Part shown: positions 53,530 to 60,690 of the stretch, piece by piece
How the letters are laid out: each line of letters begins with the position of its first letter
How positions within the stretch are numbered: position 1 is the first letter of the stretch
Sequence record: NC_054908.1
DNA from: Escherichia phage vB_EcoM_DalCa
Strand: one strand, 5' to 3'
Length of the DNA stretch: 64,000 nucleotides
Position numbers and translations under genes: made by a program
The notes under the pieces: generated by a model
What the model was told of the DNA's origin: nothing
Database searches by the model: none
What the model saw: the letters and a program-made list of their open reading frames with translations, nothing else

Positions 53530-54494
53530 TGTATTCTTTAGAGGAATTTAATAATCAAGCAATAAACGCAGATTTTCAACGTAATAATATGTTTAGCTGC
53601 GTTTTTGCGACAACTCCATCAACTAAAAGCTCTTCGTTGATAAGTTCAATTAGCAACTTTTCTTATAATAACTTGGGTCTAAATTCAGACTGGTTAGGAT
53701 TGTCTCAAGGTGATATTAATCAGGGAATTACCACGCTAATTACTGCTGGCACACAAAAACTGATAAGAAAATCAGGGGTTAGTAAATATCTTATTGGTGC
53801 CATGAGTCAACGTACAGTTCAAAGTTTATTGGGTTCATTTACAGTTGGTACATATTTAATTGACTTCTTTAATATGGCGTATAATTCATCTGGATTGATG
53901 ATATACTCTGTAAAAATGCCAGAGAATAGATTATCCTATGAAACTGACTGGAACTATAATTCTCCTAATATTCGTATAACTGGGAGAGAATTAGACCCTT
54001 TGGTTATTTCATTTAGAATGGATTCAGAAGCTTGTAACTATCGTGCAATGCAAGACTGGGTTAACGCTGTTCAAGACCCAGTAACTGGATTACGTGCTTT
54101 GCCACAAGATGTCGAGGCAGATATTCAGGTTAATCTTCATGCTCGTAATGGATTACCTCATACTGCGGTGATGTTCACCGGATGCATTCCAGTGTCAGTG
54201 AGCGCTCCTGAGTTATCATATGATGGAGATAACCAAATAACTACATTTGATGTTACTTTTGCATATAGAGTCATGCAGGCTGGAGCAGTTGATAGGCAAG
54301 CTGCGCTTGAATGGCTTGAATCTGCTGCTATAAATGGTATTCAAAGCGTTCTCGGAAATAGTGGAGGTGTTACTGGACTATCTAATTCGCTTTCACGACT
54401 CAGTAGATTAGGGGGAACTGCAGGAAGCATTTCAAACATTAATACTATGACAGGAATTGTCAATTCGCAGAGTAAAATATTAGGAGCAATATAA
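53529..54494 (+). CDS. 54: gp54 baseplate tail tube initiator
   Basis: 321 aa; synteny. Confidence 0.92.
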   Translation: MYSLEEFNNQAINADFQRNNMFSCVFATTPSTKSSSLISSISNFSYNNLGLNSDWLGLSQGDINQGITTLITAGTQKLIRKSGVSKYLIGAMSQRTVQSLLGSFTVGTYLIDFFNMAYNSSGLMIYSVKMPENRLSYETDWNYNSPNIRITGRELDPLVISFRMDSEACNYRAMQDWVNAVQDPVTGLRALPQDVEADIQVNLHARNGLPHTAVMFTGCIPVSVSAPELSYDGDNQITTFDVTFAYRVMQAGAVDRQAALEWLESAAINGIQSVLGNSGGVTGLSNSLSRLSRLGGTAGSISNINTMTGIVNSQSKILGAI

Positions 54495-54498
54495 CAAT

Positions 54499-54528
54499 GG
54501 GGACCTTTCGGTCCCCATATTTTTATTT
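54499..54528 (+). terminator. bidirectional intrinsic terminator after gene 54
   Basis: GGGGACC-TTTC-GGTCCCC followed by ATATTTTTATTT. Confidence 0.65.
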
Positions 54529-54813
54529 ACGGAATGAAATAAAAGCAGAAACTGAAGCAACTAAACTATCTTCAATATAAACTTCAATTTTTACCGGAGC
54601 TTCTGACTCAAATTTACCTGTTACTACACCCTGAAAAATACTTTCAGTCTGTTCTGGCTTTGAAAAATTTTCAGAAGGAAAAATTCCAAACTTTTTATCG
54701 GTTCCAAAAATTTTAATAAATTCATCATAAACTGCTTCATTGAAAGCGTTATCAGCGGGAATAACGCCCTCAACTACAAGTTCTTGACCTAAAAAGCGCA
54801 AAGAAGATTTCAT
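54523..54813 (-). CDS. hypothetical protein (96 aa) downstream of the alt genes
   Basis: ORF ending in the bidirectional terminator. Confidence 0.6.
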   Translation of the reverse strand: MKSSLRFLGQELVVEGVIPADNAFNEAVYDEFIKIFGTDKKFGIFPSENFSKPEQTESIFQGVVTGKFESEAPVKIEVYIEDSLVASVSAFISFRK

Positions 54814-54873
54814 TTTGTGTTCCTCATGTTATGTAAGTAAGACTACTATAACACAACATGATGGACTTGTAAA

Positions 54874-56931
54874 CTACATTTTGAACTTTTTAGACATTCC
54901 GTTAATGTTAACCAAAGAAGCTAAGATTTGAGAAACTTCATTTTCCTCTTCTTTTGATTCTTCTACAAGGAATTGATTAAATCCAGCCATTGGACGAACT
55001 TCACCAGTTTCCATTAGATGGTCTCCATCATATACTGATTCTTCTAATTGTTCAGAAGGAGGAACGATTGTACCTTCGATTAGATACTTGTTATAAGCAG
55101 TTTCTTTCATAAAGTACGTACTTACTTTATTAATCTTCAGTAAAATTCCACGTGGTAGAATAACTTCAGCTTCTGATGGAAATCCTGATAAATGACCCGG
55201 AACGATAACTTTGATTCGCTCAGCTCCTTTAATTACCATACCCACGCTAGTTTCAGCATCTTCATTAGCATATGTAGAATGACTACCCATATGCATCAAA
55301 TCTTCTGCATCAACAGAACCTTCTCCTTCGCCAGAAAATACTGCACCGGAATCATCTAGAGCCATATAGTTTTTACCATGCTCACCGAAGATATTTGGTT
55401 TAAGTGATGTCGATACGAAGTTCTTGAAATAGAACATTTTATTTTCAATATTGTGACGCAAAGTTTTAAAGGTAACTTCTTGTCCACGGTAAAGTGTAGT
55501 TCCTGGAGGAAGAACTGAACCTTTAGCGAATGCAGAATCCAGCGTCTCAATATGTTTAATAGCTCGTTCCATATATTCTTCACGGGTAGAATCTGGTTTA
55601 CCCAAAAGGAACGAGTTCATTTCAACATATGAATCTGCACAATAATCTTCAATTACGTCAGATTCAGCCTGAGTTAATCCTTTTGGAGTTACTTCAGTAC
55701 TTGCATATTCATATGCCTGAGCGGCAGATTCATTAATCAATTTATAAATGCCATTCATGACAAATTGAATAATAGCTGTCTTTTCATCTGGCGTAGCTTT
55801 AGAACCTTTAACTAAATCATTGACAATTTTCTTAATAACATCAAAACTATTAGAAATATTAATATCAGCAAGATCGCTTAAAATTTTATCAGTTTTATAA
55901 TCAAAGAATTCTTTATTCTTTAAATATTCTTGAGAACCTTGATATGTTATATCGCTCTGCAGCTTGATAGATGGATCGCGTAAACGTGCATGGGCCAATG
56001 CAATATGATTTCGGAAGTTTTCTAGTTCATAATCGTTAGATTTAAAACGAGAAGCACTTCTCATACCACCGATAGCTCCTTTGCTAAAGTTTGAACCAAT
56101 CTGAATAACGCCAGAGTTCATCGGACCTTCTGCTTTATATACCGGAACTTTAGATTCAAACTCTTGATATTTCTTGGCAGCAAAGCTATCACCCTGAAGT
56201 GAAGCATCAACAGTAGAATATTGAGCTTGTGCTGCTAATCGACGACTTATTTTAGTTTTCTGAATAACAGCTTGGTCCGTGCGCTTATCATTTTCTAAAG
56301 CAATAGAAGCAGCAACAGCGACAGCTTTAGGAACAGCATTTCCTGTTTTAACGTCTACATAAACATCACCGACCTTTGATTCAACTTTTGTGAATAACTC
56401 AGTTGAAATAGGAGGTACACCTGGAATGTCTTCTAAATTGGCATTTTTACGGTAAACCATAATATATGCATATTTCTTATCATAGTCCCAGATTTCCTTT
56501 AAAAGAACATATCGACCTGCTCCTTTAGTACGTACTAAACGGTCAGCAATAACTTGCATTTGACGAGCTGCGCCATTTGTTTTACTTTTTAGTACGCGGA
56601 ATAGGCATGCGTCGATTTTATACTGTTTCATTGTTTGAAGAGCAGTATCAAAAACGGCATTAATGACACCAATTGGATTTCCACCCAAGTTTCTAAGTTT
56701 AACCAGTGATAGTTTCTCATTAACACCTATCATTACGATATGCATCATTTTATCGCCTGGCTTAACGTTTTTATTCGTATCACCACCAGAGGTGTATGTA
56801 CAAAATCTAAATCCAGGAAGCACGCTTTCTTCGCCGGCTTGAATAGCAAAAATTTGTGGTATTTTATGCTTAGGATTTAAGTTAACAACCGGCGCCGAAG
56901 CGCCGTCAAATAATTCTGTAATAAGTTCCAT
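54874..56931 (-). CDS. Alt-like ADP-ribosyltransferase paralog (capsid-packaged)
   Basis: 685 aa; N-terminal MELITELF targeting/cleavage sequence; C-terminal R-S-E motifs (LYRGQ, FVSTS, EAEVILPRG); N-terminal ~215 aa and C-terminal domain close to the adjacent alt ORF. Confidence 0.8.
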   Translation of the reverse strand: MELITELFDGASAPVVNLNPKHKIPQIFAIQAGEESVLPGFRFCTYTSGGDTNKNVKPGDKMMHIVMIGVNEKLSLVKLRNLGGNPIGVINAVFDTALQTMKQYKIDACLFRVLKSKTNGAARQMQVIADRLVRTKGAGRYVLLKEIWDYDKKYAYIMVYRKNANLEDIPGVPPISTELFTKVESKVGDVYVDVKTGNAVPKAVAVAASIALENDKRTDQAVIQKTKISRRLAAQAQYSTVDASLQGDSFAAKKYQEFESKVPVYKAEGPMNSGVIQIGSNFSKGAIGGMRSASRFKSNDYELENFRNHIALAHARLRDPSIKLQSDITYQGSQEYLKNKEFFDYKTDKILSDLADINISNSFDVIKKIVNDLVKGSKATPDEKTAIIQFVMNGIYKLINESAAQAYEYASTEVTPKGLTQAESDVIEDYCADSYVEMNSFLLGKPDSTREEYMERAIKHIETLDSAFAKGSVLPPGTTLYRGQEVTFKTLRHNIENKMFYFKNFVSTSLKPNIFGEHGKNYMALDDSGAVFSGEGEGSVDAEDLMHMGSHSTYANEDAETSVGMVIKGAERIKVIVPGHLSGFPSEAEVILPRGILLKINKVSTYFMKETAYNKYLIEGTIVPPSEQLEESVYDGDHLMETGEVRPMAGFNQFLVEESKEEENEVSQILASLVNINGMSKKFKM

Positions 56932-56934
56932 GAT

Positions 56935-58989
56935 TTATCCTTGAACGAACTTGTAAGGCATGTTTGCAATATCTATACAAGACGCAATAATTCCAAGAGA
57001 TGATTCTACTTTCTGTTTAACATTTGATGAAACAAATGATGCAAAGTCAACTCTGTCTTCTACTTCAATATCACCTGTCATTGCAACCAATTCACCAGTT
57101 TCCATTAAATGGTCTCCGTCATAGATTACCGATTCGGTGAGCTCTTCCGTGGTCATAACTTCAGCTTGAATAAGCTTGTTGTTAGTTTTAACTGTTCCAT
57201 CATTGTAAGATGCATCAGTTATTTTATTAACTTTGACCATTAATCCACGTGGCAAAATAACTTCCATTTCATTTGAAGGCGCTAAACTTCCACCGGGTAA
57301 AACAACATTGACTTTATCAGCCCCAGTAATAACCCATCCAATTCCGACTAAATTATCGCTAGAATTAACAAGCCCTTCATCATTTTTATCGATAGAAATG
57401 TTTAGACGCTTTTCATCTGGTAAAACACCAACAGCTGAATCAGTCATCCAAGTACCAAAAATGTTTGGATATAATGATGTTGATACAAAATTTCTAAAAT
57501 AAAAAACTCGATTTTTTACCAATGCTTCATATATTGAAGGTAACATTCGCTGTGAACGATATAAAGTAATACCTTTTGGCAATCGATCACCATTTTTAAA
57601 GGCTGAATCTAAATTATCAATAGCTTTTTCTATGTCAGATGCTGTCAAAATACTTGTACGCTCATCTGGATTATATAATCCCAAAAGAGCATTATTTATG
57701 TCTACATATCCTGAACCTACGTATTCACGAATTCCGCGTTTTTGTGCTGGTGTGTATTTAGATGAATCTTTATTTTCGACTATAGGATGTAATGACCATC
57801 CAGCTGTAAGAGCATATCCACGTAATTCTCTTCGAATAATCTTTGTTTTTATTGCATTCCAAGAATTTTGTACTAACTCATTTGCAGCATCTTGGTTTAA
57901 ATGCGAATGTTTGTTAATATTTCTTTCAAACCAAGCACCTTTATATTTTTCTAAAGTATCATCGACGATAGAAGCAATAGTTTCTAAAGTTTTTATTGAA
58001 GTAATAGATTCTTTTCGTAATTTTTCTAAAGCTTTATTTTTTATTTCTGCATTAATAATGGATTCTTTATCTTCAGGAATTATAGAAGCTTCTCTGAATG
58101 CCATCCCAGCTGTAACACTGCTAAGAGCATTCTCTAGTGCAAATCCTGAAGTAGAAATTACCGTTAATTCATTAGAATCAGAAATTAAAGGCGCGTCCGC
58201 TGGTTTATTTAATTCTGCCGCTGAAGCCTCAAATTTTTGAAACATCGGTGTTTCAAATCTAGAAGATTCCAATGACTGACTTTGTGCAATTGCTCTACGG
58301 GAAATTTTAACTTTAACGATTACAGCTTGGTCAGAACGTTTATCATTTTCTTGTGCAATAGATGCTGCAATTGCCTCATTTTTGGTTACTTGAGCTCCGG
58401 TATCTTTATTGATATAAACATCACCGACCTTCGATTCAACTTTAGTAAAGAGCTCGGTACTAATTTCCGGAACTCCTGGAATGTCTTCTAGTGATACATT
58501 TTTGCGATGTATAAGAATATATGCATACTTTTTATCATAATCCCAGAGTTCCTTAAGAAGGACGTATCTGCCACCTGAACGACTACGGATAAGTCTATCA
58601 GCAATAACTTGAATTTGTCGAGCTTGACCAGCGGTTTTAGACTTAAGAATACGAAGCATACAAGCATCAATTTTATACTGACGCATTGTTTGCATTGCAA
58701 CAGTAAAAACTGAATTGATATAATTAATTGGGCTTGGACCAAGACCTTTTAATTTAGCAATTGAACCTTTAGCAGTTAATGTAAAAGGAACAATATGCAT
58801 CATTTTATCGCCCATTTTTAAATCGCGATTAGTATCACCTCCAGATGTATAGGTACATAAACGAAAGCCTGGTTGTTCAATTGCATCATCAACATGAACT
58901 GAAAAAATTTGCGGTATTTTCTTCTTTGGATTTAAGTTTGTAATCGGAAGAGTAGTATCTTCGTCAAATAATTCTGTAATAAGTTCCAT
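56935..58989 (-). CDS. alt: Alt ADP-ribosyltransferase (capsid-packaged, injected)
   Basis: 684 aa from second ATG; N-terminus MELITELFDEDTT; ART motifs LYRSQ, FVSTS, EMEVILPRG; minus-strand TATAAATA upstream. Confidence 0.85.
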   Translation of the reverse strand: MELITELFDEDTTLPITNLNPKKKIPQIFSVHVDDAIEQPGFRLCTYTSGGDTNRDLKMGDKMMHIVPFTLTAKGSIAKLKGLGPSPINYINSVFTVAMQTMRQYKIDACMLRILKSKTAGQARQIQVIADRLIRSRSGGRYVLLKELWDYDKKYAYILIHRKNVSLEDIPGVPEISTELFTKVESKVGDVYINKDTGAQVTKNEAIAASIAQENDKRSDQAVIVKVKISRRAIAQSQSLESSRFETPMFQKFEASAAELNKPADAPLISDSNELTVISTSGFALENALSSVTAGMAFREASIIPEDKESIINAEIKNKALEKLRKESITSIKTLETIASIVDDTLEKYKGAWFERNINKHSHLNQDAANELVQNSWNAIKTKIIRRELRGYALTAGWSLHPIVENKDSSKYTPAQKRGIREYVGSGYVDINNALLGLYNPDERTSILTASDIEKAIDNLDSAFKNGDRLPKGITLYRSQRMLPSIYEALVKNRVFYFRNFVSTSLYPNIFGTWMTDSAVGVLPDEKRLNISIDKNDEGLVNSSDNLVGIGWVITGADKVNVVLPGGSLAPSNEMEVILPRGLMVKVNKITDASYNDGTVKTNNKLIQAEVMTTEELTESVIYDGDHLMETGELVAMTGDIEVEDRVDFASFVSSNVKQKVESSLGIIASCIDIANMPYKFVQG

Positions 58990-59012
58990 CATAGCCTCTC
59001 TAGTGTTTATTC

Positions 59013-59020
59013 TATTTATA
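59013..59020 (-). promoter_or_regulatory. late promoter TATAAATA for alt
   Basis: minus-strand TATAAATA about 25 nt upstream of alt ATG, just after an AAAGGCC-TTCG-GGCCTTT hairpin. Confidence 0.5.
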
Positions 59021-59041
59021 AAATTAAAGGCCCGAAGGCCT

Positions 59042-59230
59042 TTAGTAATCTAGTGGTAAGAGAGTACGATATATTTCAAACTTTGGTCCTTTTTCATAGG
59101 CATCAAATGTTTCTGTAAATTTATTATAAGCGTATGCATCTACAAATTCGAGAATGACTTGTGATACAGAAGTAGAAACATCTCCACCTTCTTTTTGAGC
59201 AATGACAATTGTTTCTAAGTAAGCTTTCAT
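59042..59230 (-). CDS. hypothetical small protein (62 aa)
   Basis: ORF between ligase and alt; start overlaps ligase stop. Confidence 0.5.
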   Translation of the reverse strand: MKAYLETIVIAQKEGGDVSTSVSQVILEFVDAYAYNKFTETFDAYEKGPKFEIYRTLLPLDY

Positions 59231-60690
59231 AAACCAGTTACCTCATGAAAATCACCAAATACATCCTCGAATGTATTAGCTTTAGTTTTATCTTCACGTA
59301 AACGAATCGCAATCGGAAGAAATAATTTAACGTAATCAGTGCGGCCATCAGATTTTAACCAACCGTTGCATTCGCACTCTAGAATTTTTCCAATATAATA
59401 ATTTTGGTTTTCCATAATGCGAGTACGGTCAAGTTCATGTGATTTTACGCCGGCTTTGTCTTTTAAGCCTGAACCAGCATTTACCTTAATTTTTCCACAC
59501 TCTGACTCAAGAATAAATCCACCTGCTTTAGTAGGGTCTTTACGGTGAGGATAAATTCCTACAATTTTTAAATCAACATCAATTACTTCTTTAAATTTAT
59601 AGAGATTTTTTGAACGAGCATTTTCCCATAACCCATCAACGTTTTTGAGAATAATACCTTCAAGACCTTGATCAATATACTTTTTATAAATTACCTTAGC
59701 TTCATCTAGGTTATTTACTACCTGGTTTTCAATTAAAATTACTTTATCATAACCTGATGTCATTTGTTCTAGTTTAGAAAAACGTACATCATATTTCAAA
59801 CGAAATGCAGGAAGACCGTATATTTCTACCAACGGGACATAATCCCAGACCTGAAACTTCATGCATTGAGCTTCTTTTTCAGAAATGGTTCCCTTTAAAG
59901 ATTTATTGGCGATGCCATTAGATGCAGTACGTGATTCAGCTACTTCGGCGAATTCTTTAGCTTTACTAATTTCAGGATAAGCATCAAAAAGAAAATCTAG
60001 GCCTTCTGGCTCCTTTTCAACTTGCTCATGGTATACCAATTCGCCATCAATTAACACACCTTCTGGATGAATCTGGCGAGCTTCTGCAGTCATTTTGATT
60101 AACTCTTCCTTAAGAAGATCTAATCCTAGATATTCATTACCAGCTCGTGATAAAAGACGAACATCATCTAATTCATCACCTCTAACTTCAGCAAAACACC
60201 GAGCTCCATCAGCTTTTAACTGGGCAAAGGCTGGAAATTTGATATTCTTATTAATGCCTTTTTCATCATAAGAACTTGCAAGCATTTGAGGTTGTTCAGG
60301 AATTAAACCTGGCCAAACTTTGTTCGCAATAGATACTGAAGCACCACATTCAAGGTCTCGCATCATCACCCGACGCAAAACTTCAACATCATCTTTTTTA
60401 CCGTCAGTAATATATCCAGTTAATTCCTCAATTGCCGCATTTCCAGTCAATTTCCGAGTAGCTAACGTGAATTCAATGAAGTCAAGCATATCGGTAAGAG
60501 TCAACATTCCAAAACTCTGGGTAGCAATACCCGGTTTAGGCCATTTCTTGATATAATACTGTAACCCACGAGAATAAGTCAGACGATATACTCGTTTAAG
60601 CAATTCATTATCTTTATTCTTTTCAAGAATTGCTTGCTTCTGCTTAGTTGAACCAATAGATGCTATTTCGTTCAGAATTTTAAGAATCAT
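59227..60690 (-). CDS. 30: gp30 ATP-dependent DNA ligase
   Basis: 487 aa; N-terminus MILKILNEIAS; adenylation motif KADGAR. Confidence 0.95.
   Translation of the reverse strand: MILKILNEIASIGSTKQKQAILEKNKDNELLKRVYRLTYSRGLQYYIKKWPKPGIATQSFGMLTLTDMLDFIEFTLATRKLTGNAAIEELTGYITDGKKDDVEVLRRVMMRDLECGASVSIANKVWPGLIPEQPQMLASSYDEKGINKNIKFPAFAQLKADGARCFAEVRGDELDDVRLLSRAGNEYLGLDLLKEELIKMTAEARQIHPEGVLIDGELVYHEQVEKEPEGLDFLFDAYPEISKAKEFAEVAESRTASNGIANKSLKGTISEKEAQCMKFQVWDYVPLVEIYGLPAFRLKYDVRFSKLEQMTSGYDKVILIENQVVNNLDEAKVIYKKYIDQGLEGIILKNVDGLWENARSKNLYKFKEVIDVDLKIVGIYPHRKDPTKAGGFILESECGKIKVNAGSGLKDKAGVKSHELDRTRIMENQNYYIGKILECECNGWLKSDGRTDYVKLFLPIAIRLREDKTKANTFEDVFGDFHEVTGL

Follow-up and report, generated by a model that had tools for sequence, protein, structure and literature searches.

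The 64,000-nucleotide (nt) stretch of Escherichia phage vB_EcoM_DalCa analysed here (NC_054908.1; hereafter the window, in whose coordinates positions are given) carries on its minus strand two adjacent genes of the Alt family of ADP-ribosyltransferases (ARTs), which we refer to as open reading frames (ORFs) A (alt, encoding Alt-A) and B (alt-B, encoding Alt-B). Our analyses make it fairly probable that this pair represents an ancestral two-gene alt locus, in which both enzymes are packaged in the virion and injected, and in which Alt-B acts on targets that differ from, or only partly overlap with, those of Alt-A. The tandem pair is no novelty as a sequence feature, being already annotated in hundreds of phage genomes and sketched both in the annotation of the T4 genome and by Nolan et al. 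2006. What makes it interesting is that ORF B is missing from the model phage T4, as a result of which the biochemistry of Alt-B has gone unexplored; our literature searches found no study testing the function of the second alt copy.

Two full-length members of the Alt family

Escherichia phage vB_EcoM_C2-3 matches the region 54400-59300 at 99.7% identity and many other Tequatrovirus records match it at 97-98.6%, the two ORFs being already annotated there as alt_1/alt_2 or as a pair of 'Alt-like RNA polymerase ADP-ribosyltransferase' genes. The flanking genes in the window correspond to T4 genes 29, 48, 54, alt.-3, alt.1, DNA ligase (gene 30) and 30.1. The source of the DNA is most probably a T2/T4-like Tequatrovirus in which the ancestral pair of alt genes has been kept. 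Mechanical listing of minus-strand ORFs places ORF A at 56935..58992 and ORF B at 54874..56931, with 685 amino acids (aa) each. The initial annotation, made from the sequence alone, had read them as tandem Alt-type ARTs of 685 codons, both starting with MELITELF. The family assignment is borne out by matches of ORF A and ORF B to phrog_802 over their full length (E 3.9e-263 and 2.4e-256, respectively) and to PF03496 (ADPrib_exo_Tox; 9.5e-36 and 5.6e-20). Furthermore, proteins 89-99% identical to ORF B carry precomputed PF26846 (Tevenvirinae_ADPRT) and PF03496 assignments, and ORF A is 98.5% identical to T4 Alt; no NCBIfam model matched the Alt ORFs. The proposed length and start hold for ORF B but probably not for ORF A, which as called reads MMELITELF. 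A GAGAGG sequence lies 2 nt from the first ATG of ORF A and 5 nt from the second, and T4, which has the same ATGATG, has its Alt annotated and numbered (ITE-6) from the second ATG, so that ORF A most likely starts at this codon, spanning 56935-58989 and encoding 684 aa.

The ART motifs named in the initial annotation (LYRSQ, FVSTS and EMEVILPRG in ORF A; LYRGQ, FVSTS and EAEVILPRG in ORF B) are exact. The residues R482, S507, E587 and E589 (ORF B numbering) are invariant in 40 Alt proteins, in an alignment reaching down to ~28% identity, and, through the profile built on these 40 sequences, they fall on the YRG, STS and QxE motifs of two structurally solved enzymes, C3cer and Certhrax. In the structure-based alignment, ORF A and ORF B both retain the catalytic residues, whose absence from a paralog would, according to the initial annotation, have spoken against its reading. 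A single-sequence search of PDB sequences returned no match for either ORF, the 40-sequence profile being needed, and the PDB (2026 copy) holds no solved Alt structure. The AlphaFold models of ORF A (model confidence, pLDDT, 72.4) and ORF B (pLDDT 74.9) both match Vis, CDTa, C3bot, Certhrax, iota and VIP2. These structural matches span only ~150-200 residues, i.e. the catalytic domain, and for ORF B the best of them is to the arginine-specific toxin Vis. Both ORFs hence possess the R-S-E ART core (Arg, S-T-S, E-x-E) in a C3/VIP2-type fold that is expected of the Alt family. The E-x-E motif, as opposed to Q-x-E, is a signature of arginine-specific enzymes, and Alt-B is predicted to be an active ART with this specificity.

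Other architectures known for phage and toxin ARTs were not encountered. Neither a fusion to a MuF (SPP1 gp7 / Mu F) head domain nor embedding of the ART in a polyvalent protein was detected, and no inactive N-terminal ART-like domain that binds a B component, as in the adaptors of binary AB toxins, was present in either ORF. Both models show only helices in the region preceding the ART, which rules out a degenerate, binary-toxin-style ART-like adaptor as the identity of the middle region. Alt has previously been placed in the Alt/VIP2 R-S-E clade, with a conserved baseplate-adjacent context (PMC5512222, PMC9503650; Aravind and colleagues).

Conserved N-terminal domains and middles without detectable homology

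Each protein is predicted to be composed of four parts: an N-terminal alpha/beta domain, a helical middle, a C3/VIP2-type R-S-E ART and an acidic C-terminal tail. Over the full-length alignment ORF A and ORF B are 41% identical (E 3e-158), and this identity is unevenly distributed. Residues 1-237 are 67% identical with a single 1-residue gap (hhalign probability 100%, E 7e-110), so that the colinearity of the N-termini noted in the initial annotation stands, but over 237 residues rather than ~215. The strong divergence that it assigned to the centre is likewise real, but the unalignable part comprises ~175 aa (238-410 in ORF A, 238-415 in ORF B) instead of ~250. Homology between these middles is not detectable (24% identity over a gappy alignment; profile-profile probability 0.2%). 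The ART regions are again homologous (37% identity; profile-profile probability 100%, E 1e-40), and the C-terminal tails are 43% identical. Qualitatively, the predicted secondary structures of the two middles are alike, each comprising six or seven helices of which the last, 33-40 residues long, runs into the ART domain, and the two may share a scaffold despite their lack of sequence similarity.

The stretch from S-T-S to E-x-E within the ART domain is a second strongly divergent part, at 10-27% identity between ORF A and ORF B. The ARTT and PN loops contact substrates in C3-like enzymes, and the divergence of this stretch therefore suggests that the loops of the catalytic domain have diversified as well. 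At ARTT position -3, before E-x-E, ORF B has a phenylalanine (F584) and ORF A a proline; this position is aromatic in 27 of the 40 family members. The ART domain of ORF B also holds a disordered acidic insert (aa 517-555).

Variability of the middle extends beyond this pair. A family search against 1.84 billion representative proteins returned 112 clusters, 57 of them at E <= 1e-30, many of which align as two stretches corresponding to the N-domain and the ART domain. Column entropy amounts to 1.4-2.0 bits in the N-domain and ART core, 2.9-3.3 in the middle and 2.6-2.7 in the ART loop. The Alt protein of phage T2 (697 aa; L002, 1904-3997) is a mosaic allele of ORF A, with residues 1-240 100% identical, the middle at 15-52% identity and the S-T-S to E-x-E loop at 22%, which implies that the middle and ART-loop cassette was exchanged by recombination between otherwise near-identical A alleles. 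Given the split cluster matches, the entropy profile and the T2 allele, the variable middle is, as judged from sequence comparison, a general, cassette-like property of Alt proteins.

An ancient duplication maintained by purifying selection

Synonymous divergence between ORF A and ORF B is saturated everywhere (dS, synonymous substitutions per site, 0.8-2.2), and exact nucleotide matches are confined to the initial 28 nt and to a small number of runs of 16-20 nt. In the N-domain, dS is 1.2-1.8 and the ratio of non-synonymous to synonymous substitution (dN/dS) about 0.2. Recent gene conversion as the origin of the similar N-termini was rejected on these grounds, since N-domain dS is as saturated as elsewhere, and the similarity is best attributed to constraint. 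The 28 identical nucleotides, counted from the ATG of MELITELF (58962-58989 and 56904-56931, minus strand), stand out against the saturated synonymous sites elsewhere and may be constrained by the needs of translation initiation or, at the nucleotide level, by those of the propeptide.

In the Dhakavirus phage dhabil, an A-type copy and, downstream of it, a B-type copy occupy the syntenic position, again with a 3-nt gap between them. Its upstream copy (dhabil_260) matches only the A-type middle (E 1e-29) and is 64% identical to ORF A in the ART, and its downstream copy (dhabil_259) matches only the B-type middle (E 3e-45), with an ART 52% identical to that of ORF B. Because dhabil holds the same pair, with each middle matching its own type only, these comparisons indicate that the duplication and the two distinct middles predate the split between Tequatrovirus and Dhakavirus. 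The diversification of the middle put forward in the initial annotation is thereby substantiated, each type having been maintained in its own lineage across two genera.

Among five ORF B orthologues (ten pairs), dN/dS is 0.02-0.05 at a dS of 0.14-0.26, each pair showing 58-97 synonymous versus 5-17 non-synonymous differences. The ratio stays low throughout the protein (0.07-0.09 in the middle). Low dN/dS and the presence in dhabil of orthologues of each type indicate that ORF B is a functional gene long kept distinct from ORF A, and they constitute the strongest argument for a non-redundant function.

The deletion in T4 and the distribution of the two-gene locus

The small T4 genes alt.-1 and alt.-2 are remnants of ORF B: alt.-1 (61 aa) is 94.6% identical to ORF B residues 1-56 and alt.-2 (67 aa) is 96.4% identical to residues 62-116. 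The T4 record itself traces them to an old duplication covering the beginning of alt. A 1.69-kb deletion, which removes ORF B codons ~117 to ~679, together with an internal stop, has destroyed the gene in T4. The T4-type deletion junction is present in 91 phage records, including T4 isolates, RB55 and RB59, compared with about 400 phage records, including T2, PP01, phiD1/fD1 and UFV-AREG1, that harbour an intact ORF B at an identity of at least 90%. Given these numbers, the two-gene locus is the common and evidently ancestral state, and that of T4 is derived. Earlier listings of alt paralogues include T4 alt.-1/alt.-2, RB49 ORF183c and 44RR ORF187c/188c, encompassing both full-length and partial alt duplications (PMC1524935, Nolan et al. 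2006).

Two contigs, L009 (Logan SRR24155011, 4501-6555) and L010 (ENA ERZ27282683, 4501-6561), present a single hybrid gene between alt.1 and alt.-3, which is A-type over the first ~555 nt (L009) or ~150 nt (L010) and B-type beyond. The crossovers coincide with 18-nt and 20-nt identity runs common to ORF A and ORF B, and the hybrids look like products of unequal homologous recombination, assembly chimeras being also possible. With the A body gone in these hybrids and the B gene gone in T4, either catalytic body can evidently be lost. In Shigella phage sb4 (PQ666542; L006, 301-2352), the ORF B orthologue, at 94.6% DNA identity, is annotated as three coding sequences, reflecting either independent gene decay or a sequencing or assembly problem.

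Signals for joint late expression

The junction between ORF A and ORF B reads TAA-ATC-ATG, with a spacer of exactly 3 nt (56932-56934), and an exact late-promoter octamer, TATAAATA, is located ~20 nt 5' of ORF A; both the gap and the single upstream late promoter had been recognized in the initial annotation. This octamer is the sole exact minus-strand match within 54800-59100 and is conserved as the late promoter of alt in T4. A search for terminator-like sites in the interval between ORF A and ORF B found none. These features fit co-transcription of both ORFs from one late promoter. The resulting transcript would comprise alt-A, alt-B and probably alt.-3, and would stop at a bidirectional terminator (54497-54518). 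The 3-nt gap and the AAGGA at the 3' end of alt-A make translational coupling of alt-B to alt-A probable. The T4 alt gene is late at both the RNA and the protein level (PMC9697503), and the late promoter and the position between DNA ligase/alt.1 and alt.-3/gene 54 are those expected of an Alt-family locus.

A one-mismatch late-promoter-like octamer, TATAGATA, occurs inside the end of ORF A (56970-56977, minus strand), ~40 nt 5' of the ORF B start. It is probably a chance match, although it could drive some independent late transcription of ORF B, and we did not count it as evidence of a late promoter of its own for ORF B.

Signals for packaging and processing

Mass spectrometry of T4 heads has established that the protease gp21 cuts Alt after ITE-6 and LTE-619, removing 6 N-terminal and 63 C-terminal residues to yield a 68.2-kDa protein (PMC5694885; gp21 processing of Alt is reviewed in PMC9026906). 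Residues 7-619 of ORF A compute to 68.2 kDa, equal to the published T4 value. ORF B has an identical N-terminal site (MELITE/LF, the slash marking the cleavage point), so the gp21-type N-terminus proposed in the initial annotation coincides with the ITE-6 site mapped in T4 Alt. At the aligned C-terminal position ORF B has QLEE/S (LEE-631), where ORF A has ELTE/S (LTE-619). Both ORFs thus carry gp21 motifs at both ends, as expected of the Alt family; for ORF B the cleavage is a prediction, and its E6 and E631 are invariant in an 18-sequence alignment (A1). Predicted mature ORF B has a mass of 69.2 kDa and an isoelectric point (pI) of 7.3, with the N-terminal peptide LFDGASAPVVNLNPK (after ITE-6) and a C-terminus ...SEQLEE (LEE-631).

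A motif YDGDxxxETGE directly following the C-terminal gp21 site, and the terminal K-F, are invariant or nearly so across the Alt family. The motif lies at aa 634-644 of ORF B (window ~55000-55032) and aa 623-633 of ORF A, in the propeptide removed from the mature enzyme.

The T4 head contains about 40 Alt copies (PMC9958956), and Alt homologues are abundant in the virions of other T4-like phages (PMC13119998). From the N- and C-terminal processing motifs, the late expression of T4 alt and the presence of T4 Alt in the head, we infer on good grounds that ORF B is packaged in the virion.

A proposed role for Alt-B and its alternatives

Taken together, these data suggest the following course of events. 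By analogy with T4 Alt, both proteins would be built into the prohead core, where gp21 would trim them after ITE-6 and the C-terminal L-x-E to give enzymes of about 68 (Alt-A) and 69 kDa (Alt-B). The mature enzymes would be injected with the DNA and would transfer ADP-ribose from NAD+ to arginines of host proteins before phage gene expression. Alt-A is expected to act like T4 Alt, which modifies RNA polymerase alpha at Arg265 and many other host proteins (PMC2988021, PMC3014915). The target set of Alt-B is most likely different, or only partly overlapping, because the middle is unrelated in sequence and the substrate-contacting ART loops differ. The middle module is assumed here to be the target-recognition part.

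Several considerations weigh against this proposal. The middle module could serve packaging or core/DNA contacts instead, and no direct evidence for ORF B expression, packaging or activity was found. ORF B is dispensable in the laboratory, being deleted in T4 and 90 other records, and the body of ORF A is dispensable in nature, as seen in the single hybrids with an A-type N-terminus and a B-type body. Specificity in C3-like enzymes resides mainly in the ARTT and PN loops, and specificity is poorly predicted from loop sequences. About 27 in vitro targets are known for T4 Alt (PMC3014915), and given this promiscuity the overlap between the targets of Alt-A and Alt-B could be large.

A more specific version of this proposal, which we regard as possible but tentative, is that Alt-B is a dedicated injected effector with its own target class, for instance neutralising a host defence or toxin protein at DNA entry, and that the middles (the A types of T4 and T2, the B type and others) are exchangeable recognition cassettes shuffled by recombination. 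T4 Alt itself reportedly acts on MazF.

A rather unlikely alternative is that ORF B is a redundant dosage copy, packaged, active and directed at the same targets as Alt-A (RNA polymerase alpha Arg265 and the same secondary proteins), which raises the injected dose or lends robustness. The shared domain order, the E-x-E signature and the processing motifs of both proteins are compatible with such a role, as is the promiscuity of T4 Alt; moreover, T4 grows well without ORF B and the hybrids lack the A body, which would mean that either catalytic body alone suffices. However, a dosage copy would not be expected to show two non-homologous middles, each conserved with its own orthologue across genera, or a dN/dS of about 0.03-0.09 combined with divergent ARTT/PN-loop regions, and the saturated synonymous sites indicate that both genes have been retained for a long time.

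It is improbable that ORF B, although expressed late, stays out of the virion and acts instead in the producing cell on host or phage proteins. T4 ModA and ModB are ARTs that act unpackaged, but ORF B keeps the whole Alt-specific N-domain, at 67% identity and a dN/dS of about 0.2 relative to ORF A, together with the identical MELITE/LF, the C-terminal L-x-E and the YDGD..ETGE tail, which are sensible only for prohead incorporation and gp21 processing.

Marginally less probable still is that injected ORF B modifies a non-protein substrate, that is, a nucleic acid or small molecule, with ADP-ribose or NAD-capped RNA. ART families have repeatedly switched between protein and nucleic-acid substrates (PMC11618068, PMC9503650), ModB of the same clade RNAylates proteins, and the loops of ORF B are unlike those of ORF A. 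Against this, E-x-E combined with an aromatic ARTT residue typifies ARTs that modify protein arginines, the arginine-specific Vis is the closest structural match, and no nucleic-acid-binding domain was detected in ORF B.

Finally, the notion that ORF B is a pseudo-enzyme or a gene being lost, as the T4-type deletion in 91 records and the three annotated fragments of phage sb4 might suggest, was rejected as most improbable, since the gene is full-length and intact in about 400 records with an orthologue kept in Dhakavirus, and the selection analysis above (dN/dS 0.02-0.05) and the invariance of all catalytic residues effectively refute it.

Features of the locus and neighbouring genes

The coordinates of the elements of the locus are compiled in the table.

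Table. Coordinates in the window of the genes, protein regions and expression signals of the two-gene alt locus
Feature	Coordinates	Strand	Remarks
Terminator-like hairpin 3' of alt.1	59025..59044	-	8-bp stem, 4 GC pairs, then T-run; abuts the alt late promoter
T4-type late promoter TATAAATA of the alt operon	59013..59020	-	Sole exact match in 54800-59100; conserved in T4
ORF A Shine-Dalgarno GAGAGG	58995..59000	-	5 nt from second ATG (58987-58989), 2 nt from first
ORF A = alt, 684 aa + stop (probable extent)	56935..58989	-	T4 Alt orthologue; PF03496; phrog_802; ART fold in model
ORF A N-terminal Alt-specific alpha/beta domain, aa 1-237	58279..58989	-	Includes propeptide MELITE; 67% identity with ORF B
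ORF A variable all-helical middle, A-type, aa 238-410	57760..58278	-	Orthologous to dhabil_260 middle (E 1e-29)
ORF A ART domain, aa 411-619	57133..57759	-	R478, S503-T-S505, E574-x-E576; ends at gp21 site LTE-619
ORF A acidic C-terminal propeptide, aa 620-684	56938..57132	-	YDGDHLMETGE, motif conserved
ORF B Shine-Dalgarno-like AAGGA	56938..56942	-	Overlaps last codon and stop of ORF A; 6 nt before ORF B ATG
ORF B, 685 aa + stop	54874..56931	-	Intact form of T4 alt.-1/alt.-2; PF03496; phrog_802
ORF B N-terminal Alt-specific alpha/beta domain, aa 1-237	56221..56931	-	MELITE/LF, predicted gp21 site ITE-6
ORF B variable all-helical middle, B-type, aa 238-415	55687..56220	-	Helices pLDDT about 80-90; orthologous to dhabil_259 middle (E 3e-45)
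ORF B ART domain, aa 416-631	55039..55686	-	Ends at predicted gp21 site LEE-631
ORF B catalytic codon R482	55486-55488	-
ORF B catalytic codons S507-T-S509	55405-55413	-
ORF B catalytic codons E587-x-E589	55165-55173	-
ORF B predicted C-terminal propeptide, aa 632-685	54877..55038	-	pI 4.6; YDGDHLMETGE; low pLDDT at 629-662
Segment absent from T4	54894..56583	-	T4 colinear down to 56584, resumes at 54893, 9-nt overlap

The next gene after ORF B is a homologue of alt.-3 (54523-54813, minus strand; 96 aa; DUF5498 / phrog_1739). A sigma-70-like promoter of this gene (54845-54873, minus strand; TTTACA-17-TATAGT with TG) begins at the ORF B stop codon, and the gene ends at the bidirectional hairpin terminator, which it has in common with gene 54. 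Extensions at the C-terminus of Alt.-3 allow T4 to escape the CmdTAC defence system (PMC11618068). On the other side of the pair, the alt.1 homologue (59042-59230, minus strand; 62 aa) matches the recently defined PF24647 'Phage_blade' (E 1.9e-29).

Implications and comparison with known systems

The biochemistry of injected phage ARTs comes entirely from T4, which is the atypical case. If Alt-B has targets of its own, typical T-even phages begin infection with two pre-made host-modifying enzymes instead of one. Should those targets form a class of their own, half of the ADP-ribosylation repertoire that typical T-even phages inject would have escaped fifty years of work on Alt, T4 having lost Alt-B, and it could be Alt-B that makes T2-like phages differ from T4 in sensitivity to particular defence systems. 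The natural variants, with ORF A and ORF B in T2, ORF A only in T4 and only the B body in the hybrids, allow a clean genetic test. Furthermore, the mosaicism of these proteins, with an identical or conserved N-domain and swapped middle and ART loops, points to modular retargeting of an enzyme delivered by the capsid, a principle that phage engineering could use.

T4 Alt (682 aa) is the orthologue of ORF A, with the same neighbours (gene 30, alt.1, alt, alt.-3, gene 54) and the same late promoter. It resembles ORF B in its four-part architecture, its N-domain (67%), the R, S-T-S and E-x-E motifs, ITE-6 and the C-terminal L-x-E. In contrast, ORF B is only 41-46% identical to T4 Alt overall, its ~175-aa middle has no detectable homology to that of T4 Alt, its acidic insert between S-T-S and E-x-E is longer, it has Phe for Pro at ARTT -3, and its C-terminal propeptide is shorter (54 aa versus 65). 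The gene of which T4 alt.-1/alt.-2 are the 5' remnant is intact in the phage of the window.

The second alt genes of T2, PP01, UFV-AREG1 (alt_1/alt_2), phiD1/fD1 (g200/g201), HP3, Sf21 and other phages show 97-99.9% protein identity in the same tandem, and nothing material sets them apart; their annotations vary from 'Alt-like RNA polymerase ADP-ribosyltransferase' and 'NAD(+)--arginine ADP-ribosyltransferase' to 'hypothetical protein'. Other Straboviridae tandem alt genes (dhabil_260/259; Aeromonas 44RR ORF187c/188c and avDM10) are likewise tandem duplicates beside baseplate genes, but in the Aeromonas copies the middle corresponds to neither type. In Aeromonas phage avDM10-HWA (Biquartavirus; L005, 4131-8920), two tandem Alt homologues of ~640 aa are located near genes 54 and 48, with a 294-aa ART-only gene upstream of them.

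The C3, VIP2, iota, CDTa and Vis toxins share only 14-25% sequence identity with the Alt ORFs. Alt proteins lack the secretion or B-component-binding domains of these toxins and have instead a phage N-domain, a helical module and protease-removed propeptides for capsid delivery. T4 ModA and ModB are, like the Alt ORFs, R-S-E ARTs of the Alt/VIP2 clade that act on host transcription and translation proteins (PMC5512222, PMC2988021). Unlike the Alt ORFs, which are about 685 aa long and combine a late promoter with capsid-processing signals, ModA and ModB measure only about 200 aa, are made early after infection and are not packaged.

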